A stretch of 64,000 nucleotides of DNA from Dudresnaya verticillata (taxonomy: Eukaryota): contig OZ374565.1 of NCBI GenBank assembly GCA_977862235.1, positions 1-64,000 on the forward strand, in the 5' to 3' direction. Below are positions 1,534 through 47,420 of the stretch, one piece after another. The position numbers and the translations under genes are program-made. Under the pieces are notes generated by a model. The model was not told where the DNA came from. It did not search any database and worked only from the letters and a program-made list of their open reading frames with translations. Each line of letters opens with the position of its first letter. Positions within the stretch are counted from its first letter, which is position 1.

Positions 1534-1598
1534 CTCACCTTTGACGGCGGGCGAGCGCGGTCTACTTTTGTCTCTTTTTGCGCCGTCGATCTGCGCCG

Positions 1599-1646
1599 CG
1601 ACGCCGTCGTCGTCGCCGCCGTCGCCGCCGCCGTCGTCGCCGACGG
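1599..1646 (+). repeat. GC-rich (GTC/GCC)n trinucleotide low-complexity tract in the element 5' UTR (present in every copy)
   Basis: cgacgccgtcgtcgtcgccgccgtcgccgccgccgtcgtcgccgacgg. Confidence 0.85.
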
Positions 1647-1679
1647 TCACGCGTTTCCTATTTTGCGCTTACTTTTAAG

Positions 1680-1725
1680 GTGATCCCTCACCTTGAAATT
1701 TGCCCGGGCCCCACTGACTTATCTT
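1680..1725 (-). promoter_or_regulatory. Bipartite 5S internal-control-region / target mimic in the element 5' UTR (box C + box A); also at 6348, 11006, 15666, 20326, 24986, 29646, 53608, 58255, 62902
   Basis: GTGATCCCTCACCT-N22-GACTTATCTT is identical in both blocks and in spacing to 5S gene 35225-35238 / 35261-35270. Copies 3-7 have GACTTGTCTT. Function is not established. Confidence 0.7.
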
Positions 1726-1765
1726 TCTTTCCCTGGCCCTGTACGCGTTTTGCTTGTACCCGGCA

Positions 1766-2460
1766 CAGCCTAGACTCTGTCTAGGCTGCCGTGGACTGTC
1801 GACAGAGGGGTTTCACACCCTTCAACTGACAGATTGGTAAAGGCCAGGCTTGTCCTGTAAAATCTTCCTTCGGGAAGTGCCGAGAGACCTACAAGTGTGG
1901 GAATCGCCAAAGACCCTCGACCTTGAGTGGTAGGCGGCTCGTGACCCACAAGCTCATCGCAGAAACGTGCCAAGCAACGTCGAAGTTGGGGTAACGTGGC
2001 TTAAGCCTGGTGGATCCTGTTTTGAAACCACCCCTTCTAAGATCGAGCGAACGTCCTGCCAGCGAACCTTCGGGGGAGGCCAAAAATCCTGTGGGCACTC
2101 ACAGGTAAACGGTGGTTCTGCGACCCCATTGAGAGCTTGTGCAAACGAGAAGTACCGCGCGTTACAGGACCGCAGTGAAGAGACTCTTCTCAGCTGCGGC
2201 AGGGAAGGGAACGTCCGATAAGTCTACGCGCGAACGCTAACACGTGCGCCCTTTTGCGCGAGCTCGTGCGCAAATTGCGCAAAATCACGCCCTACGCTGC
2301 GAAGAGGCCTTCATCTCGCAGCAAGGCCACCTGTAGCACCCTCTGGAGGTGTCCCGAACAGACTGACGACGGACGACAGGCTTGCGTCCCGGTTAGGAGG
2401 TCTGTGCCCCGAGGGAACCTACTGTAGAGGACCTTTACAGGTACCTTACCCAGCGCTGTA
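1766..2460 (+). ncRNA. Putative highly structured RNA region of the element 5' UTR (identity unknown)
   Basis: 10-bp hairpin 1766-1788; 9-bp long-range helix 1852-1860/2162-2170; CUUCC-UUCG-GGAAG 1864-1877; GCAA-capped stem 2136-2149; further stems 2088-2105, 2170-2199, 2296-2322. Confidence 0.55.
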
Positions 2461-2463
2461 ACC

Positions 2464-5400
2464 ATGATTGGTCAGCAGCACCCCGACATGCCGAAGGTAT
2501 GGCTCTCTCCATGCTTTATGCCTTCGGCAAAACACCGCCCGACAAACAGTACCAGCTGTCCTCTGGGCTGCCAGTCGTCCTCACTGCCTACTGTAGAAGC
2601 GCTACTCATGCACCTGCGGAAGATGCATGTTCCTGGCAGGCGAGGACCACCGACGAGGACCGACATCGAGCCTCTCAAGCAGCAGCTCCTGGACTATGGA
2701 GTATGGTACTGTGTGACTCACAACAAGTACATGCCTACCCACTGTAGCTCCCGCATGAACAGTGAAGGCATGTACAGTATGCGGTACAAGAATTGCAGCG
2801 CATGTCCCGCCACTCGCACTCCGGCGTTCTCCCACGTCCCGTCCAACCAATTGACGACACCGAGCCGTGAAGAAACTGTAGCCGCGCCATCACAGACTCC
2901 TGCTCTGGACGCGGTCACGGAGACGCAACCCGAGGACGGCGAGCCGGCGGACGATATCCTGCCAGCCCCGCGACGAATCCCGGACAGCCAGGAGCCGCCT
3001 CCTGCACCGGTACCAGCTACTCAAGTGGTACCAACTGCGCAAACCCGACACGCTGCGCGGGGTCCAGGAGGGCAGCTTCTGCCGGCGGTCGAAGATATCT
3101 GTCGCTCGCATATCCCTATGGTCACACATATACCGTCTCGCGTGCGCGCAGAGGTGCGCGACGCACTGTCCAAGACGGTATGGGCTTTTACGAACGCAAA
3201 CAACTCTCAGGAAGCCACCAAAGAGCTCACTGCATTCCTGCTTTTTCCAGCAGCCGTCTTGTCCAATCCTCCCGCGGCGAGTGCAAGGGCCGGCGCGTCA
3301 ACCTCTGCGTCCTCGATCGGCACCTTCCGCGATCGAATCCGCCGCTGGGGACTCAAGGATTACGACGCCCTATGGCAGGAGGCCTTGAAGGGCTCGACAT
3401 TCCGTGAGCAGACTGCGCCTTCCGCAGAAGAGCAACGCCGTATCAACGCCTCACGAGCCCTTCGCCTCGCAAAGGAGGGCGCCTACAGTAAGGCAGCAGC
3501 AGCTCTAGACTCTGATGGAATCGCGCCAGCCACAGACTCTGTGATACAGTCCATGAAGGACAAGCACCCACAGTCCGTACCGCAAACCGACGCGGACCAC
3601 GAGCTTGACCAGTCCGAACCGCTGCCGACCATGCCTGACTTTGTGCCTTTCACAGCCGACGAAGTACGAAAAGCAGTGGCCAAGTTCCCCCGGGCTTCGG
3701 CCTCGGGGGGCACAGGACTATCACCGACGCATCTGCAGGAACTGCTCTCAGTCCCGACCACTCACGAGCACACGGGCCTGCTTGGCGGGCTCACCAAAAT
3801 GGTCAACGTGCTGGCCAGCGGCGCAGGACCTGCGGAGCTGTCGCCTTGGATTGCCAGCGCTCCTCTCACGGCTCTGAAGAAGCGCACCGGCGGTGTCCGC
3901 CCCATTGCTGTAGGAGAGACAATCCGACGACTCGTGAGCTCTATGCTCATGACCAGAGTCGCTCCCAAGGCCAAGGCATACCTCGAACCGCTTCAGCTCG
4001 GGGTCGCAACCTCGGGCGGCACAGAAGCGATTGTACACGCGGTCCGGAAGCTGCAGAATTCTCACGGCCATGACAAGTCCTACGGGTTGCTACAAGTGGA
4101 CTTGAAGAATGCCTTCAACCTTGTCAGCCGCAAAGCATTCATGAAGGAGGTCCGCCGACATATGCCTGAACTGCTATCGTGGGTCAGATACTGTTATGAC
4201 TCTGAGGGCCCGCACCTGTGGATGGGTGACACTCTACTGCGGAGTGTCACTGGTGTACAGCAAGGTGACCCGCTCGGGCCGTTACTGTTTGCTTTAGTGC
4301 TGCAGGCACTGATCAAACAGTTGAAGGAACTCACCGCCGACCTGCGGCGCTCGGGCCGCAATCAGCAAGCGGAGGCAGCAAACAACTTGCTGCTGTCACT
4401 GTTCTACCTGGACGACGGCGTCATCGTGGCGAAACACGCCGTACTCAGGAAGGTTCTGTCCTTCTTTGACTCCGAGGAAGCTAAGGGCTACGGCTTCCAC
4501 CTGCGCATGGACAAGTGTACTGTTTGGTGGCCTACTGCACCCGACCCAGAAGACTGCGCTGCCTACCCGTCGGATCTTGGGCAGAGCTACGGAGAAGGCA
4601 CTACAGTACTTCAGGCTCCGATTGGAACGCAGAACTACATGGAGGAGAGCGTGAATGGCCATGTCGAGTCCATCCAGCCCCTGCTGGACGCAATTTCGGG
4701 ACTCGAAGACCTACACGTGGCCATAACTCTACTCCGCAACTGTGCCGGAGTCTGCCGGCTGAACTACCTGCTGCGAGTAGTTCCATCATCCGCCACGGCG
4801 AAGGGCGCCGAGCTCTTCGACCAGAAGATTGAGGCTTGCATGCGCAAGCTCGTGGGAGGAGTCCTACCGAGGGACACCTTCCGCGAACTTCAGCTTCCCC
4901 TGCGCACGAAAGATCCCAGCTTCGGAATCGGTATTTCGGGAGCTGGCGACATGAACTCGAGCGCGTTTTTGGCGTCCCTTTCACTGACCCGCAACTTACT
5001 GCGTTCTATCTTACCCGCTTCTGTGAACACTGCTCTTTCTGACGATCCTTTTGCAGTAGAAGCGCATGAAGACTGGAGCGCCAAGTGCCATAGTGAGGAT
5101 GCCCTGGACCTCGAGAAGATCGACAGCGACGAGTGCCCGCGCCAGCGGGACTTGACGCGGTTGGTACTGAAGAAGGTGCAGGCCGAGCTGCCGCTCGGGG
5201 ACAGGCGGACTCAAGCTTTCCGAGCTTCCCTTGGCGTGCCGGGCGCCAAGGACTGGCTCAAGTGCCAGCCGGCACCAGGCATGAAGACGTACATTGCGGA
5301 TCGGGACTACCGCGTATGGCTTCGATTCTACTGTCGGATTCCACTGCTGGAACCCGACACGGAGTGTCCTCGGGCCGGGTGCAAGAAGATGATGGATGTT

Positions 5401-5952
5401 CACGGCGACCATCTGCTGATTTGTCCGAACGGCATGCGGAACAGCGGATCTCCTCGGTCGTGGCGCCACGACTCTCAGGTTCGTCTGCTGGCTTCGGATC
5501 TGAAACGTGCGACACGCACCCCGACTGTGGAGCCCCGCCCTGTGGGGGCTCACCTGGATCGGCCGGACATCAAGGCGCTTGGAACAGAAGGAGGAACGGA
5601 CTACCTGGACGTCACAATCAGTCATCCACTGTCGTCAGAACAACGCATTCTCAGCTGCATAACAAACCCGCAAGGGACGCTGAAGAACGCCCACGCTGAC
5701 AAGGTGCGGACTTACCGTGGCTTCATCCAGGCTGCCGGACCGGGGGCAAGACTTGTGCCGGTGCCGATGACCACACTAGGTGGCTGGCACCCGGAGGCGC
5801 ACAAGTATATGCAAGAGTTGGCGGATACCGTGGCTTCTCGGGCCATGGTAACTCGCGGTGTTTCGCGAGCGGCTCTGTTCCACAGGCACGCGGCGCGACT
5901 GGTGCAGAACAACGTCAAGTGCCTGATGGAAGGGATCCAACAGGAGGTGTAG
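2464..5952 (+). CDS. Retrotransposon polyprotein, 1162 aa: N-terminal C2H2 zinc finger, reverse transcriptase, CCHC knuckle, restriction-like endonuclease
   Basis: C-x3-C-x13-H-x4-H; GVRPIAVGE, QLGV..GGTEA, DLKNAFN, GVQQGDPLGPLLF, YLDD; C-x4-C-x9-H-x3-C, RHD, RPD..LDVTI..K..Y. Confidence 0.97.
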   Translation: MIGQQHPDMPKVWLSPCFMPSAKHRPTNSTSCPLGCQSSSLPTVEALLMHLRKMHVPGRRGPPTRTDIEPLKQQLLDYGVWYCVTHNKYMPTHCSSRMNSEGMYSMRYKNCSACPATRTPAFSHVPSNQLTTPSREETVAAPSQTPALDAVTETQPEDGEPADDILPAPRRIPDSQEPPPAPVPATQVVPTAQTRHAARGPGGQLLPAVEDICRSHIPMVTHIPSRVRAEVRDALSKTVWAFTNANNSQEATKELTAFLLFPAAVLSNPPAASARAGASTSASSIGTFRDRIRRWGLKDYDALWQEALKGSTFREQTAPSAEEQRRINASRALRLAKEGAYSKAAAALDSDGIAPATDSVIQSMKDKHPQSVPQTDADHELDQSEPLPTMPDFVPFTADEVRKAVAKFPRASASGGTGLSPTHLQELLSVPTTHEHTGLLGGLTKMVNVLASGAGPAELSPWIASAPLTALKKRTGGVRPIAVGETIRRLVSSMLMTRVAPKAKAYLEPLQLGVATSGGTEAIVHAVRKLQNSHGHDKSYGLLQVDLKNAFNLVSRKAFMKEVRRHMPELLSWVRYCYDSEGPHLWMGDTLLRSVTGVQQGDPLGPLLFALVLQALIKQLKELTADLRRSGRNQQAEAANNLLLSLFYLDDGVIVAKHAVLRKVLSFFDSEEAKGYGFHLRMDKCTVWWPTAPDPEDCAAYPSDLGQSYGEGTTVLQAPIGTQNYMEESVNGHVESIQPLLDAISGLEDLHVAITLLRNCAGVCRLNYLLRVVPSSATAKGAELFDQKIEACMRKLVGGVLPRDTFRELQLPLRTKDPSFGIGISGAGDMNSSAFLASLSLTRNLLRSILPASVNTALSDDPFAVEAHEDWSAKCHSEDALDLEKIDSDECPRQRDLTRLVLKKVQAELPLGDRRTQAFRASLGVPGAKDWLKCQPAPGMKTYIADRDYRVWLRFYCRIPLLEPDTECPRAGCKKMMDVHGDHLLICPNGMRNSGSPRSWRHDSQVRLLASDLKRATRTPTVEPRPVGAHLDRPDIKALGTEGGTDYLDVTISHPLSSEQRILSCITNPQGTLKNAHADKVRTYRGFIQAAGPGARLVPVPMTTLGGWHPEAHKYMQELADTVASRAMVTRGVSRAALFHRHAARLVQNNVKCLMEGIQQEV

Positions 5953-6082
5953 ATGTGCAAGTTGTCTTGAGTTGGGGTTTAACTTTGGTGTGATACTAGA
6001 GTAGATTGTACGTCGAAAAATATTAGAATATGATCACCTGTTATAAAGTTGAACTCACCTCAGATAAAGTTGAACTCACCTC

Positions 6083-9000
6083 GGCGATCTGCCGAAAATT
6101 TTGTTTCGCGGATATCTCAACAAGTTCTGCACCGATCTTTTCGGCGGCGGTGCCGCCTGTTCGAGCGCGCGACGGCGCGTCGGTGCGGGGTTTTTCAGCC
6201 CTTCACCTTTGACGGCGGGCGAGCGCGGTCTACTTTTGTCTCTTTTTGCGCCGTCGATCTGCGCCGCGACGCCGTCGTCGTCGCCGCCGTCGCCGCCGCC
6301 GTCGTCGCCGACGGTCACGCGTTTCCTATTTTGCGCTTACTTTTAAGGTGATCCCTCACCTTGAAATTTGCCCGGGCCCCACTGACTTATCTTTCTTTCC
6401 CTGGCCCTGTACGCGTTTTGCTTGTACCCGGCACAGCCTAGACTCTGTCTAGGCTGCCGTGGACTGTCGACAGAGGGGTTTCACACCCTTCAACTGACAG
6501 ATTGGTAAAGGCCAGGCTTGTCCTGTAAAATCTTCCTTCGGGAAGTGCCGAGAGACCTACAAGTGTGGGAATCGCCAAAGACCCTCGACCTTGAGTGGTA
6601 GGCGGCTCGTGACCCACAAGCTCATCGCAGAAACGTGCCAAGCAACGTCGAAGTTGGGGTAACGTGGCTTAAGCCTGGTGGATCCTGTTTTGAAACCACC
6701 CCTTCTAAGATCGAGCGAACGTCCTGCCAGCGAACCTTCGGGGGAGGCCAAAAATCCTGTGGGCACTCACAGGTAAACGGTGGTTCTGCGACCCCATTGA
6801 GAGCTTGTGCAAACGAGAAGTACCGCGCGTTACAGGACCGCAGTGAAGAGACTCTTCTCAGCTGCGGCAGGGAAGGGAACGTCCGATAAGTCTACGCGCG
6901 AACGCTAACACGTGCGCCCTTTTGCGCGAGCTCGTGCGCAAATTGCGCAATCTCACGCCCTACGCTGCGAAGAGGCCTTCATCTCGCAGCAAGGCCACCT
7001 GTAGCACCCTCTGGAGGTGTCCCGAACAGACTGACGACGGACGACAGGCTTGCGTCCCGGTTAGGAGGTCTGTGCCCCGAGGGAACCTACTGTAGAGGAC
7101 CTTTACAGGTACCTTACCCAGCGCTGTAACCATGATTGGTCAGCAGCACCCCGACATGCCGAAGGTATGGCTCTCTCCATGCTTTATGCCTTCGGCAAAA
7201 CACCGCCCGACAAACAGTACCAGCTGTCCTCTGGGCTGCCAGTCGTCCTCACTGCCTACTGTAGAAGCGCTACTCATGCACCTGCGGAAGATGCATGTTC
7301 CTGGCAGGCGAGGACCACCGACGAGGACCGACATCGAGCCTCTCAAGCAGCAGCTCCTGGACTATGGAGTATGGTACTGTGTGACTCACAACAAGTACAT
7401 GCCTACCCACTGTAGCTCCCGCATGAACAGTGAAGGCATGTACAGTATGCGGTACAAGAATTGCAGCGCATGTCCCGCCACTCGCACTCCGGCGTTCTCC
7501 CACGTCCCGTCCAACCAATTGACGACACCGAGCCGTGAAGAAACTGTAGCCGCGCCATCACAGACTCCTGCCCTGGACGCGGTCACGGAGACGCAACCCG
7601 AGGACGGCGAGCCGGCGGACGATATCCTGCCAGCCCCGCGACGAATCCCGGACAGCCAGGAGCCGCCTCCTGCACCGGTACCAGCTACTCAAGTGGTACC
7701 AACTGCGCAAACCCGACACGCTGCGCGGGGTCCAGGAGGGCAGCTTCTGCCGGCGGTCGAAGATATCTGTCGCTCGCATATCCCTATGGTCACACATATA
7801 CCGTCTCGCGTCCGCGCAGAGGTGCGCGACGCACTGTCCAAGACGGTATGGGCTTTTACGAACGCAAACAACTCTCAGGAAGCCACCAAAGAGCTCACTG
7901 CATTCCTGCTTTTTCCAGCAGCCGTCTTGTCCAATCCTCCCGCGGCGAGTGCAAGGGCCGGCGCGTCAACCTCTGCGTCCTCGATCGGCACCTTCCGCGA
8001 TCGAATCCGCCGCTGGGGACTCAAGGATTACGACGCCCTATGGCAGGAGGCCTTGAAGGGCTCGACATTCCGTGAGCAGACTGCGCCTTCCGCAGAAGAG
8101 CAACGCCGTATCAACGCCTCACGAGCCCTTCGCCTCGCAAAGGAGGGCGCCTACAGTAAGGCAGCAGCAGCTCTAGACTCTGATGGAATCGCCCCAGCCA
8201 CAGACTCTGTGATACAGTCCATGAAGGACAAGCACCCACAGTCCGTACCGCAAACCGACGCGGACCACGAGCTTGACCAGTCCGAACCGCTGCCGACCAT
8301 GCCTGACTTTGTGCCTTTCACAGCCGACGAAGTACGAAAAGCAGTGGCCAAGTTCCCCCGGGCTTCGGCCTCGGGGGGCACAGGACTATCACCGACCCAT
8401 CTGCAGGAACTGCTCTCAGTCCCGACCACTCACGAGCACACGGGCCTGCTTGGCGGGCTCACCAAAATGGTCAACGTGCTGGCCAGCGGCGCAGGACCTG
8501 CGGAGCTGTCGCCTTGGATTGCCAGCGCTCCTCTCACGGCTCTGAAGAAGCGCACCGGCGGTGTCCGCCCCATTGCTGTAGGAGAGACAATCCGACGACT
8601 CGTGAGCTCTATGCTCATGACCAGAGTCGCTCCCAAGGCCAAGGCATACCTCGAACCGCTTCAGCTCGGGGTCGCAACCTCGGGCGGCACAGAAGCCATT
8701 GTACACGCGGTCCGGAAGCTGCAGAAGTCTCACGGCCATGACAAGTCCTACGGGTTGCTACAAGTGGACTTGAAGAATGCCTTCAACCTTGTCAGCCGCA
8801 AAGCATTCATGAAGGAGGTCCGCCGACATATGCCTGAACTACTACCGTGGGTCAGATTCTGTTATGACTCTGAGGGCCCGCACCTGTGGATGGGTGACAC
8901 TCTACTGCGGAGTGTCACTGGTGTACAGCAAGGTGACCCGCTCGGGCCGTTACTGTTTGCTTTGGTGCTGCAGGCACTGATCAAACAGTTGAAGGAACTC

Positions 9001-10721
9001 ACCGCCGACCTGCGGCGCTCGGGCCGCAATCAGCAAGCGGAGGGGGCGAACAACTTGCTGCTGTCACTGTTCTACCTGGACGACGGCGTCATCGTGGCGA
9101 AACACGCCGTACTCAGGAAGGTTCTGTCCTTCTTTGACTCCGAGGAAGCTAAGGGCTATGGCTTCCACCTGCGCATGGACAAGTGTACTGTTTGGTGGCC
9201 TACTGCACCCGACCCAGAAGACTGCGCTGCCTACCCATCGGATCTTGGGCAGAGCTACGGAGAAGGCACTACAGTACTTCAGGCTCCGATTGGAACGCAG
9301 AACTACATGGAGGAGAGCGTGAATGGCCATGTCGAGTCCATCCAGCCCCTGCTGGACGCAATTTCGGGACTAGAAGACCTACACGTGGCCATCACTCTAC
9401 TCCGCAACTGTGCCGGAGTCTGCCGGCTGAACTACCTGCTGCGAGTAGTTCCATCATCCGCCACGGCGAAGGGCGCCGAGCTCTTCGACCAGAAGATTGA
9501 GGCTTGCATGCGCAAGCTCGTGGGAGGAGTCCTACCGAGGGACACCTTCCGCGAACTTCAGCTTCCCCTGCGCACGAAAGAGCCCAGCTTCGGTATCGGT
9601 ATTTCGGGAGCTGGCGACATGAACTCGAGCGCGTTTTTGGCGTCCCTTTCACTGACCCGCAACTTACTGCGTTCTATCTTACCCGCTTCTGTGAACACTG
9701 CTCTTTCTGACGATCCTTTTGCAGTAGAAGCGCACGAAGACTGGAGCGCCAAGTGCCATAGTGAGGATGCTCTGGACCTGGAGAAGATCGACAGCGACGA
9801 GTGCCCACGCCAGAGGGACTTGACGCGGTTGGTACTGAAGAAAGTGCAAGCCGAGCTGCCGCTCGGGGACAGGCGGACGCAAGCTTTCCGAGCTTCCCTT
9901 GGCGCGCCGGGCGCCAAGGACTGGCTCAAGTGCCAGCCGGCACCAGGCATGAAGACGTACATTGCGGATCGGGACTACCGCGTATGGCTTCGATTCTACT
10001 GTCGGATTCCACTGCTGGAACCCGACACGGAGTGTCCTCGGGCCGGGTGCAAGAAGATGATGGATGTTCACGGCGACCATCTGCTGATTTGTCCGAACGG
10101 CATGCGGAACAGCGGATCTCCTCGGTCGTGGCGCCACGACTCTCAGGTTCGTCTGCTGGCTTCGGATCTGAAACGTGCGACACGCACCCCGATTGTGGAG
10201 CCCCGCCCTGTGGGGGCTCACCTGGATCGGCCGGACATCAAGGCGCTTGGAACAGAAGGAGGAACGGACTACCTGGACGTCACAATCAGTCATCCACTGT
10301 CGTCAGAACAACGCATTCTCAGCTGCATAACAAACCCGCAAGGGACGCTGAAGAACGCCCACGCTGACAAGGTGCGGACTTACCGTGGCTTCATCCAGGC
10401 TGCCGGACCGGGGGCAAGACTTGTGCCGGTGCCGATGACCACACTAGGTGGCTGGCACCCGGAGGCGCACAAGTACATGCAAGAGTTGGCGGATACTGTG
10501 GCTTCTCGGGCCATGGTAACTCGCGGTGTTTCGCGAGCGGCTCTATTCCACAGGCACGCGGCGCGACTGGTGCAGAACAACGTCAAGTGCCTGATGGAAG
10601 GGATCCAACAGGAGGTGTAGATGTGCAAGTTGTTTTGAGTTGGGGTTTAACTTTGTTGTGATACTACAGTAGATTGTACGTCGACAAATATTAGAATATG
10701 ATCACCTGTTATAAAGTTGAA
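6083..10721 (+). mobile_element. RLE non-LTR retrotransposon, copy 2
   Basis: Near-identical to the other copies; ends ATAAAGTTGAA, then CTCACCTCAGTACT (10722-10735). Confidence 0.93.
7132..10620 (+). CDS. Retrotransposon RT/RLE polyprotein, 1162 aa
   Basis: Intact ORF with the same motifs as 2464-5952. Confidence 0.97.
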   Translation: MIGQQHPDMPKVWLSPCFMPSAKHRPTNSTSCPLGCQSSSLPTVEALLMHLRKMHVPGRRGPPTRTDIEPLKQQLLDYGVWYCVTHNKYMPTHCSSRMNSEGMYSMRYKNCSACPATRTPAFSHVPSNQLTTPSREETVAAPSQTPALDAVTETQPEDGEPADDILPAPRRIPDSQEPPPAPVPATQVVPTAQTRHAARGPGGQLLPAVEDICRSHIPMVTHIPSRVRAEVRDALSKTVWAFTNANNSQEATKELTAFLLFPAAVLSNPPAASARAGASTSASSIGTFRDRIRRWGLKDYDALWQEALKGSTFREQTAPSAEEQRRINASRALRLAKEGAYSKAAAALDSDGIAPATDSVIQSMKDKHPQSVPQTDADHELDQSEPLPTMPDFVPFTADEVRKAVAKFPRASASGGTGLSPTHLQELLSVPTTHEHTGLLGGLTKMVNVLASGAGPAELSPWIASAPLTALKKRTGGVRPIAVGETIRRLVSSMLMTRVAPKAKAYLEPLQLGVATSGGTEAIVHAVRKLQKSHGHDKSYGLLQVDLKNAFNLVSRKAFMKEVRRHMPELLPWVRFCYDSEGPHLWMGDTLLRSVTGVQQGDPLGPLLFALVLQALIKQLKELTADLRRSGRNQQAEGANNLLLSLFYLDDGVIVAKHAVLRKVLSFFDSEEAKGYGFHLRMDKCTVWWPTAPDPEDCAAYPSDLGQSYGEGTTVLQAPIGTQNYMEESVNGHVESIQPLLDAISGLEDLHVAITLLRNCAGVCRLNYLLRVVPSSATAKGAELFDQKIEACMRKLVGGVLPRDTFRELQLPLRTKEPSFGIGISGAGDMNSSAFLASLSLTRNLLRSILPASVNTALSDDPFAVEAHEDWSAKCHSEDALDLEKIDSDECPRQRDLTRLVLKKVQAELPLGDRRTQAFRASLGAPGAKDWLKCQPAPGMKTYIADRDYRVWLRFYCRIPLLEPDTECPRAGCKKMMDVHGDHLLICPNGMRNSGSPRSWRHDSQVRLLASDLKRATRTPIVEPRPVGAHLDRPDIKALGTEGGTDYLDVTISHPLSSEQRILSCITNPQGTLKNAHADKVRTYRGFIQAAGPGARLVPVPMTTLGGWHPEAHKYMQELADTVASRAMVTRGVSRAALFHRHAARLVQNNVKCLMEGIQQEV

Positions 10722-34021: not shown

Positions 34022-34110
34022 CTCACCTCAGTACTAAACCAGCCTGACGAGACTTATCTTCGCAGTTCGGGATGGGATACGGAGCATGTCTGCGTAGTAT
34101 GGCCGAATGT
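34022..34110 (-). pseudogene. 5S rRNA gene truncated by retrotransposon insertion (nt 1-89 retained)
   Basis: Identical to 35232-35320; nt 90-120 and the terminator are replaced by the element 3' end. Confidence 0.93.
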
Positions 34111-35187: not shown

Positions 35188-35200
35188 AAAAAAATAAAAA
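35188..35200 (-). terminator. Pol III oligo-T terminator of the 5S gene (in each intact unit)
   Basis: TTTTTATTTTTTT on the minus strand directly after the gene 3' end. Confidence 0.88.
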
Positions 35201-35320
35201 ACATTCGGCACTGGCGATTCCAGAGTGATCCCTCACCTCAGTACTAAACCAGCCTGACGAGACTTATCTTCGCAGTTCGGGATGGGATACGGAGCATGTC
35301 TGCGTAGTATGGCCGAATGT
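35201..35320 (-). rRNA. 5S rRNA
   Basis: Minus strand ACATTCGGCCATAC...CCCATCCCGAACTGCGAAGATAAG...TTAGTACTGAGGTGAGGGATCACTCTGGAATC...GCCGAATGT; 120 nt; terminal helix ACATTCGGC/GCCGAATGT; oligo-T follows. Confidence 0.96.
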
Positions 35321-35343
35321 GCTTGCTGTTCCCGCCGTACCCC

Positions 35344-35351
35344 TATTTAAA
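35344..35351 (-). promoter_or_regulatory. TATA-like element at about -24 to -31 of the 5S gene (in each unit)
   Basis: TTTAAATA on the minus strand at the usual upstream position for 5S genes. Confidence 0.6.
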
Positions 35352-36410
35352 TGCGCCATCAACTGCACTCCCCGTCATCGACTAAAGACTCCTGCGTCCA
35401 ATGTCCATCCCACTGTAGTGTACACGTGGAGCATTATAGTAGTGACTCATAACCGTATACCATTTACTCTAAACGCAGGATCCAATATAAATACGGTGAA
35501 CCAGCTCATGGACGTTCTGACCCCTTGGTTCAATGAAACCAGCACCCAATCTAATTTACAGAGCCCCTAGATCCAATCCTATAACGCTTTGACTTCTGTT
35601 GATCCAATCCATCCACCCTTATTGGATCCGAACCTGATGCATTCCGTGATTTATATTACTGCATTGTACTATACTTTCTCATCCTTCCCTTTCCATTTCC
35701 TCATCCTTACTCCTTTCCTTCCCACTCTCTGCACCCCTAAACGCGTTAAAATGACACATCCCTAACACCCCTAAACCCACCCATAACCATACGTGCCCCA
35801 AACCCCGATTTAACCCGCTCAAAAGCTGCCGACGGCCCGTGGGGACGTTTTGCACCATAGAAACGCGCTAAAAAGTCGATTTAGGAGGGTAAGAGCGCTA
35901 CGCAATGCGCAGCAACGAGACGCTTCGATTGAGCTACTGAACAGCGCCCGAGCCCCAGCCGTTCCAAAGTTATGAGCACAAACGTCCAAGCCACCCTCAC
36001 CCCAGCCACCAGACTTGATCCGATTGTGGTGATCCTTGATCCAATCTTCTGGGTACTAAATCTAATCCAATTCTATGTCCCTAAATCCAATTCATCCACC
36101 ACACTGATCCATTCCATCCACCACCATGATTCACTCCATGCACCAACACTAGACCCTTTACCCTCCCAATATCATGCCCCTCGCGTACCAGAGTAACCAA
36201 ACTAACCGTAGACCTAACCCTAAACAACCCCTAGACACCTGCAAACACTCTCAGACTCCCTCCCACTTACAAGAAAAGGGGAAAAGTGCGAGTGAAAAGA
36301 ATACGCTGTACAGAGGCAGTGGGTCGGGGATTCTGCGGGAGAGGTATGCAAGGCAGCAATGTACGCAGAGGGCGGCGGGGAGGAAGGAATGAGGTGCAAA
36401 AAAATAAAAA

Positions 36411-36530
36411 ACATTCGGCACTGGCGATTCCAGAGTGATCCCTCACCTCAGTACTAAACCAGCCTGACGAGACTTATCTTCGCAGTTCGGGATGGGATAC
36501 GGAGCATGTCTGCGTAGTATGGCCGAATGT
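36411..36530 (-). rRNA. 5S rRNA
   Basis: Repeat of 35201-35320. Confidence 0.95.
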
Positions 36531-37620
36531 GCTTGCTGTTCCCGCCGTACCCCTATTTAAATGCGCCATCAACTGCACTCCCCGTCATCGACTAAAGACT
36601 CCTGCGTCCAATGTCCATCCCACTGTAGTGTACACGTGGAGCATTATAGTAGTGACTCATAACCGTATACCATTTACTCTAAACGCAGGATCCAATATAA
36701 ATACGGTGAACCAGCTCATGGACGTTCTGACCCCTTGGTTCAATGAAACCAGCACCCAATCTAATTTACAGAGCCCCTAGATCCAATCCTATAACGCTTT
36801 GACTTCTGTTGATCCAATCCATCCACCCTTATTGGATCCGAACCTGATGCATTCCGTGATTTATATTACTGCATTGTACTATACTTTCTCATCCTTCCCT
36901 TTCCATTTCCTCATCCTTACTCCTTTCCTTCCCACTCTCTGCACCCCTAAACGCGTTAAAATGACACATCCCTAACACCCCTAAACCCACCCATAACCAT
37001 ACGTGCCCCAAACCCCGATTTAACCCGCTCAAAAGCTGCCGACGGCCCGTGGGGACGTTTTGCACCATAGAAACGCGCTAAAAAGTCGATTTAGGAGGGT
37101 AAGAGCGCTACGCAATGCGCAGCAACGAGACGCTTCGATTGAGCTACTGAACAGCGCCCGAGCCCCAGCCGTTCCAAAGTTATGAGCACAAACGTCCAAG
37201 CCACCCTCACCCCAGCCACCAGACTTGATCCGATTGTGGTGATCCTTGATCCAATCTTCTGGGTACTAAATCTAATCCAATTCTATGTCCCTAAATCCAA
37301 TTCATCCACCACACTGATCCATTCCATCCACCACCATGATTCACTCCATGCACCAACACTAGACCCTTTACCCTCCCAATATCATGCCCCTCGCGTACCA
37401 GAGTAACCAAACTAACCGTAGACCTAACCCTAAACAACCCCTAGACACCTGCAAACACTCTCAGACTCCCTCCCACTTACAAGAAAAGGGGAAAAGTGCG
37501 AGTGAAAAGAATACGCTGTACAGAGGCAGTGGGTCGGGGATTCTGCGGGAGAGGTATGCAAGGCAGCAATGTACGCAGAGGGCGGCGGGGAGGAAGGAAT
37601 GAGGTGCAAAAAAATAAAAA

Positions 37621-37740
37621 ACATTCGGCACTGGCGATTCCAGAGTGATCCCTCACCTCAGTACTAAACCAGCCTGACGAGACTTATCTTCGCAGTTCGG
37701 GATGGGATACGGAGCATGTCTGCGTAGTATGGCCGAATGT
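37621..37740 (-). rRNA. 5S rRNA
   Basis: Repeat of 35201-35320. Confidence 0.95.
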
Positions 37741-38830
37741 GCTTGCTGTTCCCGCCGTACCCCTATTTAAATGCGCCATCAACTGCACTCCCCGTCATCG
37801 ACTAAAGACTCCTGCGTCCAATGTCCATCCCACTGTAGTGTACACGTGGAGCATTATAGTAGTGACTCATAACCGTATACCATTTACTCTAAACGCAGGA
37901 TCCAATATAAATACGGTGAACCAGCTCATGGACGTTCTGACCCCTTGGTTCAATGAAACCAGCACCCAATCTAATTTACAGAGCCCCTAGATCCAATCCT
38001 ATAACGCTTTGACTTCTGTTGATCCAATCCATCCACCCTTATTGGATCCGAACCTGATGCATTCCGTGATTTATATTACTGCATTGTACTATACTTTCTC
38101 ATCCTTCCCTTTCCATTTCCTCATCCTTACTCCTTTCCTTCCCACTCTCTGCACCCCTAAACGCGTTAAAATGACACATCCCTAACACCCCTAAACCCAC
38201 CCATAACCATACGTGCCCCAAACCCCGATTTAACCCGCTCAAAAGCTGCCGACGGCCCGTGGGGACGTTTTGCACCATAGAAACGCGCTAAAAAGTCGAT
38301 TTAGGAGGGTAAGAGCGCTACGCAATGCGCAGCAACGAGACGCTTCGATTGAGCTACTGAACAGCGCCCGAGCCCCAGCCGTTCCAAAGTTATGAGCACA
38401 AACGTCCAAGCCACCCTCACCCCAGCCACCAGACTTGATCCGATTGTGGTGATCCTTGATCCAATCTTCTGGGTACTAAATCTAATCCAATTCTATGTCC
38501 CTAAATCCAATTCATCCACCACACTGATCCATTCCATCCACCACCATGATTCACTCCATGCACCAACACTAGACCCTTTACCCTCCCAATATCATGCCCC
38601 TCGCGTACCAGAGTAACCAAACTAACCGTAGACCTAACCCTAAACAACCCCTAGACACCTGCAAACACTCTCAGACTCCCTCCCACTTACAAGAAAAGGG
38701 GAAAAGTGCGAGTGAAAAGAATACGCTGTACAGAGGCAGTGGGTCGGGGATTCTGCGGGAGAGGTATGCAAGGCAGCAATGTACGCAGAGGGCGGCGGGG
38801 AGGAAGGAATGAGGTGCAAAAAAATAAAAA

Positions 38831-38950
38831 ACATTCGGCACTGGCGATTCCAGAGTGATCCCTCACCTCAGTACTAAACCAGCCTGACGAGACTTATCTT
38901 CGCAGTTCGGGATGGGATACGGAGCATGTCTGCGTAGTATGGCCGAATGT
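38831..38950 (-). rRNA. 5S rRNA
   Basis: Repeat of 35201-35320. Confidence 0.95.
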
Positions 38951-40040
38951 GCTTGCTGTTCCCGCCGTACCCCTATTTAAATGCGCCATCAACTGCACTC
39001 CCCGTCATCGACTAAAGACTCCTGCGTCCAATGTCCATCCCACTGTAGTGTACACGTGGAGCATTATAGTAGTGACTCATAACCGTATACCATTTACTCT
39101 AAACGCAGGATCCAATATAAATACGGTGAACCAGCTCATGGACGTTCTGACCCCTTGGTTCAATGAAACCAGCACCCAATCTAATTTACAGAGCCCCTAG
39201 ATCCAATCCTATAACGCTTTGACTTCTGTTGATCCAATCCATCCACCCTTATTGGATCCGAACCTGATGCATTCCGTGATTTATATTACTGCATTGTACT
39301 ATACTTTCTCATCCTTCCCTTTCCATTTCCTCATCCTTACTCCTTTCCTTCCCACTCTCTGCACCCCTAAACGCGTTAAAATGACACATCCCTAACACCC
39401 CTAAACCCACCCATAACCATACGTGCCCCAAACCCCGATTTAACCCGCTCAAAAGCTGCCGACGGCCCGTGGGGACGTTTTGCACCATAGAAACGCGCTA
39501 AAAAGTCGATTTAGGAGGGTAAGAGCGCTACGCAATGCGCAGCAACGAGACGCTTCGATTGAGCTACTGAACAGCGCCCGAGCCCCAGCCGTTCCAAAGT
39601 TATGAGCACAAACGTCCAAGCCACCCTCACCCCAGCCACCAGACTTGATCCGATTGTGGTGATCCTTGATCCAATCTTCTGGGTACTAAATCTAATCCAA
39701 TTCTATGTCCCTAAATCCAATTCATCCACCACACTGATCCATTCCATCCACCACCATGATTCACTCCATGCACCAACACTAGACCCTTTACCCTCCCAAT
39801 ATCATGCCCCTCGCGTACCAGAGTAACCAAACTAACCGTAGACCTAACCCTAAACAACCCCTAGACACCTGCAAACACTCTCAGACTCCCTCCCACTTAC
39901 AAGAAAAGGGGAAAAGTGCGAGTGAAAAGAATACGCTGTACAGAGGCAGTGGGTCGGGGATTCTGCGGGAGAGGTATGCAAGGCAGCAATGTACGCAGAG
40001 GGCGGCGGGGAGGAAGGAATGAGGTGCAAAAAAATAAAAA

Positions 40041-40160
40041 ACATTCGGCACTGGCGATTCCAGAGTGATCCCTCACCTCAGTACTAAACCAGCCTGACGA
40101 GACTTATCTTCGCAGTTCGGGATGGGATACGGAGCATGTCTGCGTAGTATGGCCGAATGT
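40041..40160 (-). rRNA. 5S rRNA
   Basis: Repeat of 35201-35320. Confidence 0.95.
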
Positions 40161-41250
40161 GCTTGCTGTTCCCGCCGTACCCCTATTTAAATGCGCCATC
40201 AACTGCACTCCCCGTCATCGACTAAAGACTCCTGCGTCCAATGTCCATCCCACTGTAGTGTACACGTGGAGCATTATAGTAGTGACTCATAACCGTATAC
40301 CATTTACTCTAAACGCAGGATCCAATATAAATACGGTGAACCAGCTCATGGACGTTCTGACCCCTTGGTTCAATGAAACCAGCACCCAATCTAATTTACA
40401 GAGCCCCTAGATCCAATCCTATAACGCTTTGACTTCTGTTGATCCAATCCATCCACCCTTATTGGATCCGAACCTGATGCATTCCGTGATTTATATTACT
40501 GCATTGTACTATACTTTCTCATCCTTCCCTTTCCATTTCCTCATCCTTACTCCTTTCCTTCCCACTCTCTGCACCCCTAAACGCGTTAAAATGACACATC
40601 CCTAACACCCCTAAACCCACCCATAACCATACGTGCCCCAAACCCCGATTTAACCCGCTCAAAAGCTGCCGACGGCCCGTGGGGACGTTTTGCACCATAG
40701 AAACGCGCTAAAAAGTCGATTTAGGAGGGTAAGAGCGCTACGCAATGCGCAGCAACGAGACGCTTCGATTGAGCTACTGAACAGCGCCCGAGCCCCAGCC
40801 GTTCCAAAGTTATGAGCACAAACGTCCAAGCCACCCTCACCCCAGCCACCAGACTTGATCCGATTGTGGTGATCCTTGATCCAATCTTCTGGGTACTAAA
40901 TCTAATCCAATTCTATGTCCCTAAATCCAATTCATCCACCACACTGATCCATTCCATCCACCACCATGATTCACTCCATGCACCAACACTAGACCCTTTA
41001 CCCTCCCAATATCATGCCCCTCGCGTACCAGAGTAACCAAACTAACCGTAGACCTAACCCTAAACAACCCCTAGACACCTGCAAACACTCTCAGACTCCC
41101 TCCCACTTACAAGAAAAGGGGAAAAGTGCGAGTGAAAAGAATACGCTGTACAGAGGCAGTGGGTCGGGGATTCTGCGGGAGAGGTATGCAAGGCAGCAAT
41201 GTACGCAGAGGGCGGCGGGGAGGAAGGAATGAGGTGCAAAAAAATAAAAA

Positions 41251-41370
41251 ACATTCGGCACTGGCGATTCCAGAGTGATCCCTCACCTCAGTACTAAACC
41301 AGCCTGACGAGACTTATCTTCGCAGTTCGGGATGGGATACGGAGCATGTCTGCGTAGTATGGCCGAATGT
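41251..41370 (-). rRNA. 5S rRNA
   Basis: Repeat of 35201-35320. Confidence 0.95.
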
Positions 41371-42460
41371 GCTTGCTGTTCCCGCCGTACCCCTATTTAA
41401 ATGCGCCATCAACTGCACTCCCCGTCATCGACTAAAGACTCCTGCGTCCAATGTCCATCCCACTGTAGTGTACACGTGGAGCATTATAGTAGTGACTCAT
41501 AACCGTATACCATTTACTCTAAACGCAGGATCCAATATAAATACGGTGAACCAGCTCATGGACGTTCTGACCCCTTGGTTCAATGAAACCAGCACCCAAT
41601 CTAATTTACAGAGCCCCTAGATCCAATCCTATAACGCTTTGACTTCTGTTGATCCAATCCATCCACCCTTATTGGATCCGAACCTGATGCATTCCGTGAT
41701 TTATATTACTGCATTGTACTATACTTTCTCATCCTTCCCTTTCCATTTCCTCATCCTTACTCCTTTCCTTCCCACTCTCTGCACCCCTAAACGCGTTAAA
41801 ATGACACATCCCTAACACCCCTAAACCCACCCATAACCATACGTGCCCCAAACCCCGATTTAACCCGCTCAAAAGCTGCCGACGGCCCGTGGGGACGTTT
41901 TGCACCATAGAAACGCGCTAAAAAGTCGATTTAGGAGGGTAAGAGCGCTACGCAATGCGCAGCAACGAGACGCTTCGATTGAGCTACTGAACAGCGCCCG
42001 AGCCCCAGCCGTTCCAAAGTTATGAGCACAAACGTCCAAGCCACCCTCACCCCAGCCACCAGACTTGATCCGATTGTGGTGATCCTTGATCCAATCTTCT
42101 GGGTACTAAATCTAATCCAATTCTATGTCCCTAAATCCAATTCATCCACCACACTGATCCATTCCATCCACCACCATGATTCACTCCATGCACCAACACT
42201 AGACCCTTTACCCTCCCAATATCATGCCCCTCGCGTACCAGAGTAACCAAACTAACCGTAGACCTAACCCTAAACAACCCCTAGACACCTGCAAACACTC
42301 TCAGACTCCCTCCCACTTACAAGAAAAGGGGAAAAGTGCGAGTGAAAAGAATACGCTGTACAGAGGCAGTGGGTCGGGGATTCTGCGGGAGAGGTATGCA
42401 AGGCAGCAATGTACGCAGAGGGCGGCGGGGAGGAAGGAATGAGGTGCAAAAAAATAAAAA

Positions 42461-42580
42461 ACATTCGGCACTGGCGATTCCAGAGTGATCCCTCACCTCA
42501 GTACTAAACCAGCCTGACGAGACTTATCTTCGCAGTTCGGGATGGGATACGGAGCATGTCTGCGTAGTATGGCCGAATGT
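42461..42580 (-). rRNA. 5S rRNA
   Basis: Repeat of 35201-35320. Confidence 0.95.
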
Positions 42581-43670
42581 GCTTGCTGTTCCCGCCGTAC
42601 CCCTATTTAAATGCGCCATCAACTGCACTCCCCGTCATCGACTAAAGACTCCTGCGTCCAATGTCCATCCCACTGTAGTGTACACGTGGAGCATTATAGT
42701 AGTGACTCATAACCGTATACCATTTACTCTAAACGCAGGATCCAATATAAATACGGTGAACCAGCTCATGGACGTTCTGACCCCTTGGTTCAATGAAACC
42801 AGCACCCAATCTAATTTACAGAGCCCCTAGATCCAATCCTATAACGCTTTGACTTCTGTTGATCCAATCCATCCACCCTTATTGGATCCGAACCTGATGC
42901 ATTCCGTGATTTATATTACTGCATTGTACTATACTTTCTCATCCTTCCCTTTCCATTTCCTCATCCTTACTCCTTTCCTTCCCACTCTCTGCACCCCTAA
43001 ACGCGTTAAAATGACACATCCCTAACACCCCTAAACCCACCCATAACCATACGTGCCCCAAACCCCGATTTAACCCGCTCAAAAGCTGCCGACGGCCCGT
43101 GGGGACGTTTTGCACCATAGAAACGCGCTAAAAAGTCGATTTAGGAGGGTAAGAGCGCTACGCAATGCGCAGCAACGAGACGCTTCGATTGAGCTACTGA
43201 ACAGCGCCCGAGCCCCAGCCGTTCCAAAGTTATGAGCACAAACGTCCAAGCCACCCTCACCCCAGCCACCAGACTTGATCCGATTGTGGTGATCCTTGAT
43301 CCAATCTTCTGGGTACTAAATCTAATCCAATTCTATGTCCCTAAATCCAATTCATCCACCACACTGATCCATTCCATCCACCACCATGATTCACTCCATG
43401 CACCAACACTAGACCCTTTACCCTCCCAATATCATGCCCCTCGCGTACCAGAGTAACCAAACTAACCGTAGACCTAACCCTAAACAACCCCTAGACACCT
43501 GCAAACACTCTCAGACTCCCTCCCACTTACAAGAAAAGGGGAAAAGTGCGAGTGAAAAGAATACGCTGTACAGAGGCAGTGGGTCGGGGATTCTGCGGGA
43601 GAGGTATGCAAGGCAGCAATGTACGCAGAGGGCGGCGGGGAGGAAGGAATGAGGTGCAAAAAAATAAAAA

Positions 43671-43790
43671 ACATTCGGCACTGGCGATTCCAGAGTGATC
43701 CCTCACCTCAGTACTAAACCAGCCTGACGAGACTTATCTTCGCAGTTCGGGATGGGATACGGAGCATGTCTGCGTAGTATGGCCGAATGT
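43671..43790 (-). rRNA. 5S rRNA
   Basis: Repeat of 35201-35320. Confidence 0.95.
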
Positions 43791-44880
43791 GCTTGCTGTT
43801 CCCGCCGTACCCCTATTTAAATGCGCCATCAACTGCACTCCCCGTCATCGACTAAAGACTCCTGCGTCCAATGTCCATCCCACTGTAGTGTACACGTGGA
43901 GCATTATAGTAGTGACTCATAACCGTATACCATTTACTCTAAACGCAGGATCCAATATAAATACGGTGAACCAGCTCATGGACGTTCTGACCCCTTGGTT
44001 CAATGAAACCAGCACCCAATCTAATTTACAGAGCCCCTAGATCCAATCCTATAACGCTTTGACTTCTGTTGATCCAATCCATCCACCCTTATTGGATCCG
44101 AACCTGATGCATTCCGTGATTTATATTACTGCATTGTACTATACTTTCTCATCCTTCCCTTTCCATTTCCTCATCCTTACTCCTTTCCTTCCCACTCTCT
44201 GCACCCCTAAACGCGTTAAAATGACACATCCCTAACACCCCTAAACCCACCCATAACCATACGTGCCCCAAACCCCGATTTAACCCGCTCAAAAGCTGCC
44301 GACGGCCCGTGGGGACGTTTTGCACCATAGAAACGCGCTAAAAAGTCGATTTAGGAGGGTAAGAGCGCTACGCAATGCGCAGCAACGAGACGCTTCGATT
44401 GAGCTACTGAACAGCGCCCGAGCCCCAGCCGTTCCAAAGTTATGAGCACAAACGTCCAAGCCACCCTCACCCCAGCCACCAGACTTGATCCGATTGTGGT
44501 GATCCTTGATCCAATCTTCTGGGTACTAAATCTAATCCAATTCTATGTCCCTAAATCCAATTCATCCACCACACTGATCCATTCCATCCACCACCATGAT
44601 TCACTCCATGCACCAACACTAGACCCTTTACCCTCCCAATATCATGCCCCTCGCGTACCAGAGTAACCAAACTAACCGTAGACCTAACCCTAAACAACCC
44701 CTAGACACCTGCAAACACTCTCAGACTCCCTCCCACTTACAAGAAAAGGGGAAAAGTGCGAGTGAAAAGAATACGCTGTACAGAGGCAGTGGGTCGGGGA
44801 TTCTGCGGGAGAGGTATGCAAGGCAGCAATGTACGCAGAGGGCGGCGGGGAGGAAGGAATGAGGTGCAAAAAAATAAAAA

Positions 44881-45000
44881 ACATTCGGCACTGGCGATTC
44901 CAGAGTGATCCCTCACCTCAGTACTAAACCAGCCTGACGAGACTTATCTTCGCAGTTCGGGATGGGATACGGAGCATGTCTGCGTAGTATGGCCGAATGT
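44881..45000 (-). rRNA. 5S rRNA
   Basis: Repeat of 35201-35320. Confidence 0.95.
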
Positions 45001-46090
45001 GCTTGCTGTTCCCGCCGTACCCCTATTTAAATGCGCCATCAACTGCACTCCCCGTCATCGACTAAAGACTCCTGCGTCCAATGTCCATCCCACTGTAGTG
45101 TACACGTGGAGCATTATAGTAGTGACTCATAACCGTATACCATTTACTCTAAACGCAGGATCCAATATAAATACGGTGAACCAGCTCATGGACGTTCTGA
45201 CCCCTTGGTTCAATGAAACCAGCACCCAATCTAATTTACAGAGCCCCTAGATCCAATCCTATAACGCTTTGACTTCTGTTGATCCAATCCATCCACCCTT
45301 ATTGGATCCGAACCTGATGCATTCCGTGATTTATATTACTGCATTGTACTATACTTTCTCATCCTTCCCTTTCCATTTCCTCATCCTTACTCCTTTCCTT
45401 CCCACTCTCTGCACCCCTAAACGCGTTAAAATGACACATCCCTAACACCCCTAAACCCACCCATAACCATACGTGCCCCAAACCCCGATTTAACCCGCTC
45501 AAAAGCTGCCGACGGCCCGTGGGGACGTTTTGCACCATAGAAACGCGCTAAAAAGTCGATTTAGGAGGGTAAGAGCGCTACGCAATGCGCAGCAACGAGA
45601 CGCTTCGATTGAGCTACTGAACAGCGCCCGAGCCCCAGCCGTTCCAAAGTTATGAGCACAAACGTCCAAGCCACCCTCACCCCAGCCACCAGACTTGATC
45701 CGATTGTGGTGATCCTTGATCCAATCTTCTGGGTACTAAATCTAATCCAATTCTATGTCCCTAAATCCAATTCATCCACCACACTGATCCATTCCATCCA
45801 CCACCATGATTCACTCCATGCACCAACACTAGACCCTTTACCCTCCCAATATCATGCCCCTCGCGTACCAGAGTAACCAAACTAACCGTAGACCTAACCC
45901 TAAACAACCCCTAGACACCTGCAAACACTCTCAGACTCCCTCCCACTTACAAGAAAAGGGGAAAAGTGCGAGTGAAAAGAATACGCTGTACAGAGGCAGT
46001 GGGTCGGGGATTCTGCGGGAGAGGTATGCAAGGCAGCAATGTACGCAGAGGGCGGCGGGGAGGAAGGAATGAGGTGCAAAAAAATAAAAA

Positions 46091-46210
46091 ACATTCGGCA
46101 CTGGCGATTCCAGAGTGATCCCTCACCTCAGTACTAAACCAGCCTGACGAGACTTATCTTCGCAGTTCGGGATGGGATACGGAGCATGTCTGCGTAGTAT
46201 GGCCGAATGT
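46091..46210 (-). rRNA. 5S rRNA
   Basis: Repeat of 35201-35320. Confidence 0.95.
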
Positions 46211-47300
46211 GCTTGCTGTTCCCGCCGTACCCCTATTTAAATGCGCCATCAACTGCACTCCCCGTCATCGACTAAAGACTCCTGCGTCCAATGTCCATCC
46301 CACTGTAGTGTACACGTGGAGCATTATAGTAGTGACTCATAACCGTATACCATTTACTCTAAACGCAGGATCCAATATAAATACGGTGAACCAGCTCATG
46401 GACGTTCTGACCCCTTGGTTCAATGAAACCAGCACCCAATCTAATTTACAGAGCCCCTAGATCCAATCCTATAACGCTTTGACTTCTGTTGATCCAATCC
46501 ATCCACCCTTATTGGATCCGAACCTGATGCATTCCGTGATTTATATTACTGCATTGTACTATACTTTCTCATCCTTCCCTTTCCATTTCCTCATCCTTAC
46601 TCCTTTCCTTCCCACTCTCTGCACCCCTAAACGCGTTAAAATGACACATCCCTAACACCCCTAAACCCACCCATAACCATACGTGCCCCAAACCCCGATT
46701 TAACCCGCTCAAAAGCTGCCGACGGCCCGTGGGGACGTTTTGCACCATAGAAACGCGCTAAAAAGTCGATTTAGGAGGGTAAGAGCGCTACGCAATGCGC
46801 AGCAACGAGACGCTTCGATTGAGCTACTGAACAGCGCCCGAGCCCCAGCCGTTCCAAAGTTATGAGCACAAACGTCCAAGCCACCCTCACCCCAGCCACC
46901 AGACTTGATCCGATTGTGGTGATCCTTGATCCAATCTTCTGGGTACTAAATCTAATCCAATTCTATGTCCCTAAATCCAATTCATCCACCACACTGATCC
47001 ATTCCATCCACCACCATGATTCACTCCATGCACCAACACTAGACCCTTTACCCTCCCAATATCATGCCCCTCGCGTACCAGAGTAACCAAACTAACCGTA
47101 GACCTAACCCTAAACAACCCCTAGACACCTGCAAACACTCTCAGACTCCCTCCCACTTACAAGAAAAGGGGAAAAGTGCGAGTGAAAAGAATACGCTGTA
47201 CAGAGGCAGTGGGTCGGGGATTCTGCGGGAGAGGTATGCAAGGCAGCAATGTACGCAGAGGGCGGCGGGGAGGAAGGAATGAGGTGCAAAAAAATAAAAA

Positions 47301-47420
47301 ACATTCGGCACTGGCGATTCCAGAGTGATCCCTCACCTCAGTACTAAACCAGCCTGACGAGACTTATCTTCGCAGTTCGGGATGGGATACGGAGCATGTC
47401 TGCGTAGTATGGCCGAATGT
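47301..47420 (-). rRNA. 5S rRNA
   Basis: Repeat of 35201-35320. Confidence 0.95.

Follow-up and report, generated by a model that had tools for sequence, protein, structure and literature searches.

Results

A retrotransposon array between a telomere and the 5S rRNA genes

The window, by which we mean the whole 64,000-nucleotide stretch of Dudresnaya verticillata DNA that was analysed, carries seven head-to-tail copies of a 4.64-kb element between a telomere repeat array and an interrupted 5S rRNA gene, followed by intact 5S genes and by further copies of the element:

1–1534, no strand assigned: telomere repeat array, unit CCCTAAAC (8 nt, about 188 copies)
1535–6053, plus strand: element copy c1, its 5' end truncated by the telomere
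6085–10721, plus strand: element copy c2, full-length (4637 bp), with a 1047-nt leader and the two-block module described below at 6348–6393
34022–34110, minus strand: interrupted 5S gene (nt 1–89; Rfam), at the 3' junction of copy c7
35200–52260, minus strand: 15 intact, identical 5S genes in 1210-bp units (Rfam)
53345–64000, plus strand: element copies c8–c10, c10 being cut off by the window end

Copies c3–c7 follow c2 head to tail and end at 34021. Each 5S unit has a TATA-like sequence, TTTAAATA, at −31 to −24 and a T-run terminator, and the gene at 35320–35200 (Rfam call) served as the reference for the matches reported here. All 15 of the 1210-bp 5S units are identical, as are c4–c6 over 4.5 kb, which reflects either very recent homogenisation or an assembly consensus. 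The element copies differ at 0–75 positions and, being near-identical, do not amount to ten independent observations. Between c1 and c2 (6054–6084) lies an 11-nt fragment of the element 3' end with target bases on both sides, either an aborted insertion or a template jump.

The element encodes a CRE-like protein and interrupts box C of the 5S gene

The element has one open reading frame:

2464–5952, plus strand: single ORF (ATG at 2464; 1162 aa) with a C2H2 finger, a reverse transcriptase (RT), and a CCHC motif plus restriction-like endonuclease (RLE)

The C2H2 finger lies near the N-terminus at aa 44; the RT matches PF00078 (E = 5e-17), has the motif YLDD and finds its nearest solved structures in R2 and L1 proteins (E about 1e-7); and the C-terminus reads CX4CX9HX3CX13RHD-X19-E-X9-RPD-X13-D, a CCHC plus RLE motif. 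The CCHC/endonuclease region comes near the SLACS/CRE pattern of the CRE clade (PMC12857005), but its CCHC spacing is wider. On these sequence features we call the element a CRE-like restriction-endonuclease retrotransposon; the tree in which it was placed contained unnamed relatives and no named CRE reference.

Insertion is antisense at 5S nt 89/90, inside box C, with the 3' junction at 34021 reading GTGATCC/CTCACCT. All ten element 3' ends (nine copies plus the 11-nt fragment) run into CTCACCTC, target sequence that extends for 8–14 nt or, at 34021, over nt 89–1 of the 5S gene; there is no poly-A tail. The 5' ends abut the telomere cap (c1), 5S spacer (c8) or the preceding copy (the remainder), and no intact junction between a 5S gene and an element 5' end is found within the window. 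Junctions accrete 8–14 target nt together with an extra CCTCAG, common to c3–c8. At c8 (53317–53345) the element is joined to 5S spacer through 10 unexplained bases, and the 5S gene lacks its 3' part there; this copy carries the same 5' tag as c3–c7 on the opposite side of the 5S array, so elements pass on their junction bases. A further TCACCT in the 3' UTR (6030–6053), 14 nt from the element end, is possibly an older 3' junction. Overall, the retrotransposon looks recently active.

Two relatives stand beside antisense tRNA genes

Eleven related proteins share 41–56% identity with the element protein, the closest (P0002–P0004) 47–56%; the only close match with a name is EukProt IDg10506t1, whose identifier has the style of a red seaweed. 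In a quick tree, these eleven proteins, ten metagenome loci and the element form one group with 100% SH-aLRT support. We examined 100 loci, namely 80 from metagenomes (the best 80 of 357) and 20 genome contigs. Searching these with the host 5S by blastn gave nothing beyond one 13-mer, and Rfam found no 5S in 18 loci at gathering level or in 9 loci at E up to 5; ARAGORN, run on all 100, found two tRNAs.

One locus, L002, begins where an intact antisense tRNA-Arg gene has its 5' end; after the 3' end of L002 come the same 11 bases and an older copy, 73% identical, of the L002 5' end. Another, L009, has an intact antisense tRNA-Ala gene on its 5' side, with a junction that is not pinned. The stretches concerned are 3829–3903 and 8600–8785 in L002 and 4449–4520 in L009, and both loci carry an extra upstream reading frame. 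A tRNA gene is thus present at only 2 of the ten close loci, five of which are fragments, and no Pol III gene was seen at three close loci that have a 5' flank. L002 and L009 likely represent a tRNA-targeting branch of the lineage.

Several further observations were made. A Ulp1-type protease lies upstream of the RT in P0005 and P0009 (PF02902, precomputed) and, by eye, in L003, L005 and L016. L004 (1–100 and 4660–4768) is a collapsed tandem unit belonging to a related element, and its junction shows no recognisable host gene. No relative of the element was found in viral contigs; one pattern match there, L101, whose spacer is 23 nt long and whose surrounding 300 nt show neither 5S nor element sequence, was put down to chance.

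Two blocks of the 5S gene are kept in register in the element leader

The leader holds, on the minus strand, the following matches to the 5S gene:

1680–1693, minus strand: box C copy, GTGATCCCTCACCT (5S nt 83–96; 5S gene 35225–35238)
1703–1708, minus strand: equivalent of the intermediate promoter element (IE), CCCGGG (5S nt 68–73), with G71 and G72 as in the host; weak alone
1716–1725, minus strand: box A copy, GACTTATCTT (5S nt 51–60; 5S gene 35261–35270)

The sequence-only reading had described two blocks separated by 22 nt as in the 5S gene, with a poorly matched spacer and unmatched flanks. Both blocks do fall on one ungapped diagonal; six spacer positions are identical, and these include the IE guanines G71 and G72; and the flanks match at 6 of 25 positions on the left and 15 of 72 on the right (10-mer excluded), which is chance level. 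The 14-mer also straddles the insertion site as had been proposed, with 7 nt on either side of the junction, the true nick lying possibly further right if the element RNA carries target bases.

All ten copies have the 14-mer and the 22-nt block spacing; five match the 10-mer exactly and the other five, c3–c7, differ from it by a single A>G change (GACTTGTCTT). When the whole element was shuffled by dinucleotides, a match to 5S of at least 14 nt arose in 7 of 2000 shuffles; a further run lying on one diagonal with it appeared in 11 of 200000 when 10/10 was required and in 274 of 200000 at 9/10. The diagonal holds 30 matches in 46 positions, and such clustering has a probability of about 8e-8 under uniform decay, which supports selection over neutral decay for the retained, spaced blocks, as had been suggested. 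An Rfam search of the leader found no 5S match (E up to 10) and returned three weak matches, all far below gathering score.

The kept positions are those of the type-1 promoter

We took the 5S promoter consensus (box A, IE and box C) from PMC3369914 and the box positions from Xenopus (50–64, 67–72 and 80–97; PMC6204057), shifted by two per the Rfam alignment. At consensus-specified positions the leader equals the host 5S at 20 of 21, against 25 of 100 elsewhere, so that the assignment of the blocks to box C and box A is tighter than first stated. The Xenopus-to-host numbering offset is in part our assumption. Variant copies with the A>G change keep 19 of the 21, and the changed base still fits the consensus Y. 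The leader also copies the host's departures from the consensus (A54, T59, A88 and T93) and keeps the isolated T99 of the host 5S.

In box C, 12 of 12 specified positions are as in the host, 9 of them fitting the general consensus, likewise in the host itself. In box A the figure is 6 of 6 (5 of 6 in the variant), in a register from the Rfam alignment; by consensus alone, another place in the host gene fits box A better (5 vs 4 of 6). CCCGGG fits S-N-N-R-R-N at both registers tried, the motif being too short for significance, and the clustering of 4 matches in 6 IE positions, in a register chosen to fit the host, has p = 0.025 for a fixed window and 0.24 for any window. Stretches of 5S outside the promoter that are just as conserved are lost, with matches at 0/4 positions of nt 10–13, 4/12 of loop C and 2/4 each of loop E and nt 100–103. 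Loop E, 11–14 nt from the nick, is retained at most real junctions and lost in the leader copy.

TFIIIA reads the C-box, the IE and the A-box (PMC12409998). The consensus-specified positions are also the most conserved positions of 5S, and the element protein could equally read them.

A second module and the element's own protein

The module could be a bipartite DNA site of the element protein, made up of a nick motif and a motif at +30 to +39, and serving as a decoy, in promoter autoregulation, or as the place of annealing or cutting during integration; we consider this doubtful. The 14-mer is centred on the nick, TCACCT occurs three times in the UTRs against 0.23 expected, and R2 N-terminal domains footprint separate patches 15–37 bp from the nick (PMC11204384). 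There is, moreover, a related sequence upstream:

1534–1572, minus strand: second, degenerate module, 153 bp upstream of the first and in the same register

It has TCACCT at 1535–1540 and ACTT at 1564–1567, and is identical to the first module at 26–27 of 46 positions, a resemblance of moderate significance (3–21 of 5000 local shuffles, 3–34 of 600 whole-element shuffles). Compared with 5S alone, it matches at 14 of 24 positions, which is tied with a chance match and not significant. The telomere meets c1 exactly at the nick-equivalent base of this second module (1531–1545 of the window), a single event which suggests that the chromosome end at c1 was made at an element cut or junction, either by an endonuclease cut or by a truncated copy annealing to the target overhang, with the target cut later.

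Against such a site, none of the nine element 5' junctions (three junction types plus c8) falls at the internal module, and the target bases +8 to +14 that are present at junctions are missing from it. Tandem junctions match box A at only 1–3 of 10 positions (+30 to +39), so the box A block is apparently unnecessary for insertion, provided that these junctions arose by insertion; they could alternatively come from template jumping. A TFIIIA site would resemble the target anyway and, if it overlaps the target, the telomere break can be a by-product. The earlier suggestion of a decoy or self-target thus gains from the telomere join at the second module and loses from the lack of any 5' junction (n = 9) at the site.

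Leader RNA structure: relic or guide

The blocks might instead be what remains of an old 5' junction that had a long target-site duplication, preserved solely through their part in leader RNA structure (hairpin, loop and pyrimidine tract). Element ends do accrete target bases, which probably explains the origin of the module, not its retention. The 14-mer lies inside an 11-bp hairpin (1673–1698) containing a U-G pair that is workable in the sense strand only, and the leader is strongly structured and free of ATG. We nevertheless judge a structural relic to be quite unlikely: neutral decay is incompatible with the clustering of matches (8e-8), and structure alone would leave the loop letters, box A, G71/G72, T99 and the 22-nt spacing free.

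The same hairpin bears on the proposal that both blocks serve the element RNA as a built-in guide, by which it would pair with 5S rRNA or with the nicked strand of the 5S target. Over 7 nt to each side of the junction, the sense RNA complements the strand that is primed in target-primed reverse transcription (TPRT); the A>G variant still pairs as G-U with the duplex energy unchanged; and in engineered systems R2 TPRT can be redirected by internal homology arms (review PMC13708176). The 14-mer is, however, predicted to be locked in the 11-bp hairpin (−11.4 kcal/mol; mean unpaired 0.31; 9/9 folds), in which four loop bases are unpaired, and this pairing in every fold tried weakens the guide as originally put forward. 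An RNA guide needs neither the promoter-specific positions nor the exact DNA spacing; the blocks are 260 nt inside the 5' end, with 4.3 kb between them and the priming 3' end; and the tRNA-adjacent L002 has no internal target copy in its short leader (read by eye). We therefore hold a guide role to be very unlikely. A two-block guide unmasked by protein, pairing across the nick and 30–39 bp away, would make this a natural RNA-guided, reprogrammable target-primed retrotransposon, which we regard as highly improbable.

Transcription from the antisense boxes

Across its 1049 nt the leader lacks an ATG (2 of 3000 shuffles), the mark of a genuine scanned sense leader, and the boxes cannot, as a result, be the promoter of the element's own RNA. 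Any Pol III transcript from them would run antisense:

1775, minus strand: equivalent of 5S +1, a G on this strand, where any antisense Pol III transcript is predicted to begin

At the equivalent of −31 to −24 no TATA-like box is present, the element having TCTGTCGA where the host has TTTAAATA; an upstream TATA-like element is not universal among 5S genes (PMC3369914). We scanned the full-length copies c2, c3, c8 and c9 for T4 runs on the minus strand beyond the +1 equivalent. The first run falls in the last 14 nt of c2 and 466 nt on in c8, and c3 and c9 are free of one for 1500 nt; in none of the four copies does a run precede the element's last 14 nt. Composition alone accounts for the lack of A4 runs (86% of shuffles). 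The A-poor zone of the leader ends at element position 341–385 (support 323–408), the +1 equivalent being at 359, and a structured, pyrimidine-rich sense leader would also explain this zone. Folding of the leader is stronger in sense than in antisense (z −4.7 vs −2.5).

Other features of the leader were also recorded. Over 6085–7131 it is ATG-free for more than 1 kb, and its first 400 nt are CpG-rich and strongly folded, which suggests a leader that is transcribed by Pol II from an internal promoter and then scanned. At 1762–1791 an inverted repeat of 10 bp, perfect in both arms, has its centre two bases from the +1 equivalent. Exact 8–10-mers of sense 5S occur in 6544–7027, five in c2 (p = 0.006) or four in c3 (p = 0.03) against 1.2 expected, in reversed order, and in the c2 fold one of them pairs with the box A block; they are possibly due to chance. 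A leader intron, considered for a branch-like CTGAC before a pyrimidine tract, was rejected because the leader has no GTRAG donor. Neither Rfam nor a simple descriptor, applied to both strands, found an HDV-like or hammerhead ribozyme core; a divergent one could escape both.

Discussion

A probable outward-facing promoter mimic

We think that the module is probably an antisense mimic of a type-1 Pol III promoter, a putative TFIIIA site facing out of the element's 5' end. Of the three roles first offered for the blocks, a captured 5S promoter or TFIIIA site in antisense is the best supported, its functional side being read from sequence.

The segment would have been captured from a 5S gene or from an old 5' junction, after which everything that TFIIIA does not read decayed. 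The antisense copy likely binds host TFIIIA and likely assembles a 5S-type Pol III complex that points outward. Insertion cuts through box C, so that box A and the IE end up on the 3' side and the 5' end of the element would lose any intact Pol III promoter; the tRNA-adjacent relative L002 has an intact, outward-pointing tRNA gene at its 5' end, and the internal 5S copy may, to go by two loci, restore such an arrangement. What the element likely gains is open, 5S-like chromatin, or a barrier, around its own sense promoter in an array adjacent to 5S genes and a telomere. Whether Pol III fires from 1775, giving an antisense RNA of about 350 nt, we put at about even chances. With the TATA-like box missing, the module may bind without firing, and to judge from the boxes putative TFIIIA binding is more probable than productive transcription. 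The mimic reading draws on one host, whose TFIIIA is putative, and the extension of the 14-mer into a hairpin, superfluous for a DNA site, counts against it.

If TFIIIA does bind, an autonomous retrotransposon destroys a 5S promoter on insertion and supplies an outward-facing replacement, and the locus offers a compact test of how site-specific elements stay expressed in silenced or Pol III-dedicated arrays. The promoter-mimic reading predicts that the boxes covary with those of the host, host by host, as in Cassandra. A 5S-aimed RLE retrotransposon with relatives beside tRNA genes also adds a target class for RNA-based gene insertion.

Comparison with known elements

The antisense promoter of L1 is, like the module here, outward-facing and a few hundred nt inside the 5' UTR. 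It is, in contrast, a Pol II promoter and not derived from a target gene. Mutsu, a zebrafish non-LTR element, belongs to the APE-type Tx1 clade. It shares site-specific insertion into 5S genes with the element here, but has two ORFs, a site about 20 nt from the 5S 5' end and, in the available part of its description, no promoter copy (PMC5340908).

The CRE clade (SLACS, CZAR, CRE1/2) and the related Cnl1, MoTeR and FoTeR resemble the element here in having a single ORF with zinc finger, RT and RLE; they are site-specific, with target duplications of varying size and arrays at chromosome ends (PMC12278014, PMC12857005, bioRxiv 2021.08.11.455996). CRE elements described there, however, target spliced-leader genes or telomere repeats (same sources), whereas the element here lies antisense in the 5S gene and lacks poly-A. 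RLE elements that target tRNA genes are known in the NeSL group (PMC4640811). In literature searches that reached neither Repbase nor most subscription papers, we found neither a CRE-type element that targets 5S nor an autonomous LINE with an antisense 5S promoter.

SINE3 likewise carries a 5S-derived type-1 promoter in a retroelement, but there it is in sense and at the head, whereas here it lies 260 nt inside a 1047-nt leader and in antisense (PMC10946416). The element is autonomous, its module is internal and antisense, and it has no tail or duplication of the kind that marks a SINE. The 5S-promoter-bearing elements in the table of that review are SINEs and TRIMs only (PMC10946416).

Cassandra and Ajax keep box A, the IE and box C of the host 5S with variable stretches between them, as seen here (PMC10853983, PMC10886601); Cassandra mirrors host-specific changes in the boxes (PMC10853983), and Ajax retains only the three boxes (PMC10886601). 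Both are non-autonomous, with LTRs and a sense promoter that makes their own template RNA, none of which the element has. Unlike them it is an autonomous non-LTR element with its boxes in antisense, has 24 contiguous bases left, and inserts into the gene that it copied; its intact RT-RLE ORF, head-to-tail non-LTR copies and antisense boxes set it apart from the TRIM type of Cassandra and Ajax. By analogy, the module most likely works like a Cassandra-type promoter capture turned backwards. It is a real, selected, promoter-only copy of 5S within an autonomous 5S-targeting retrotransposon that is a member of neither Cassandra nor SINE3.
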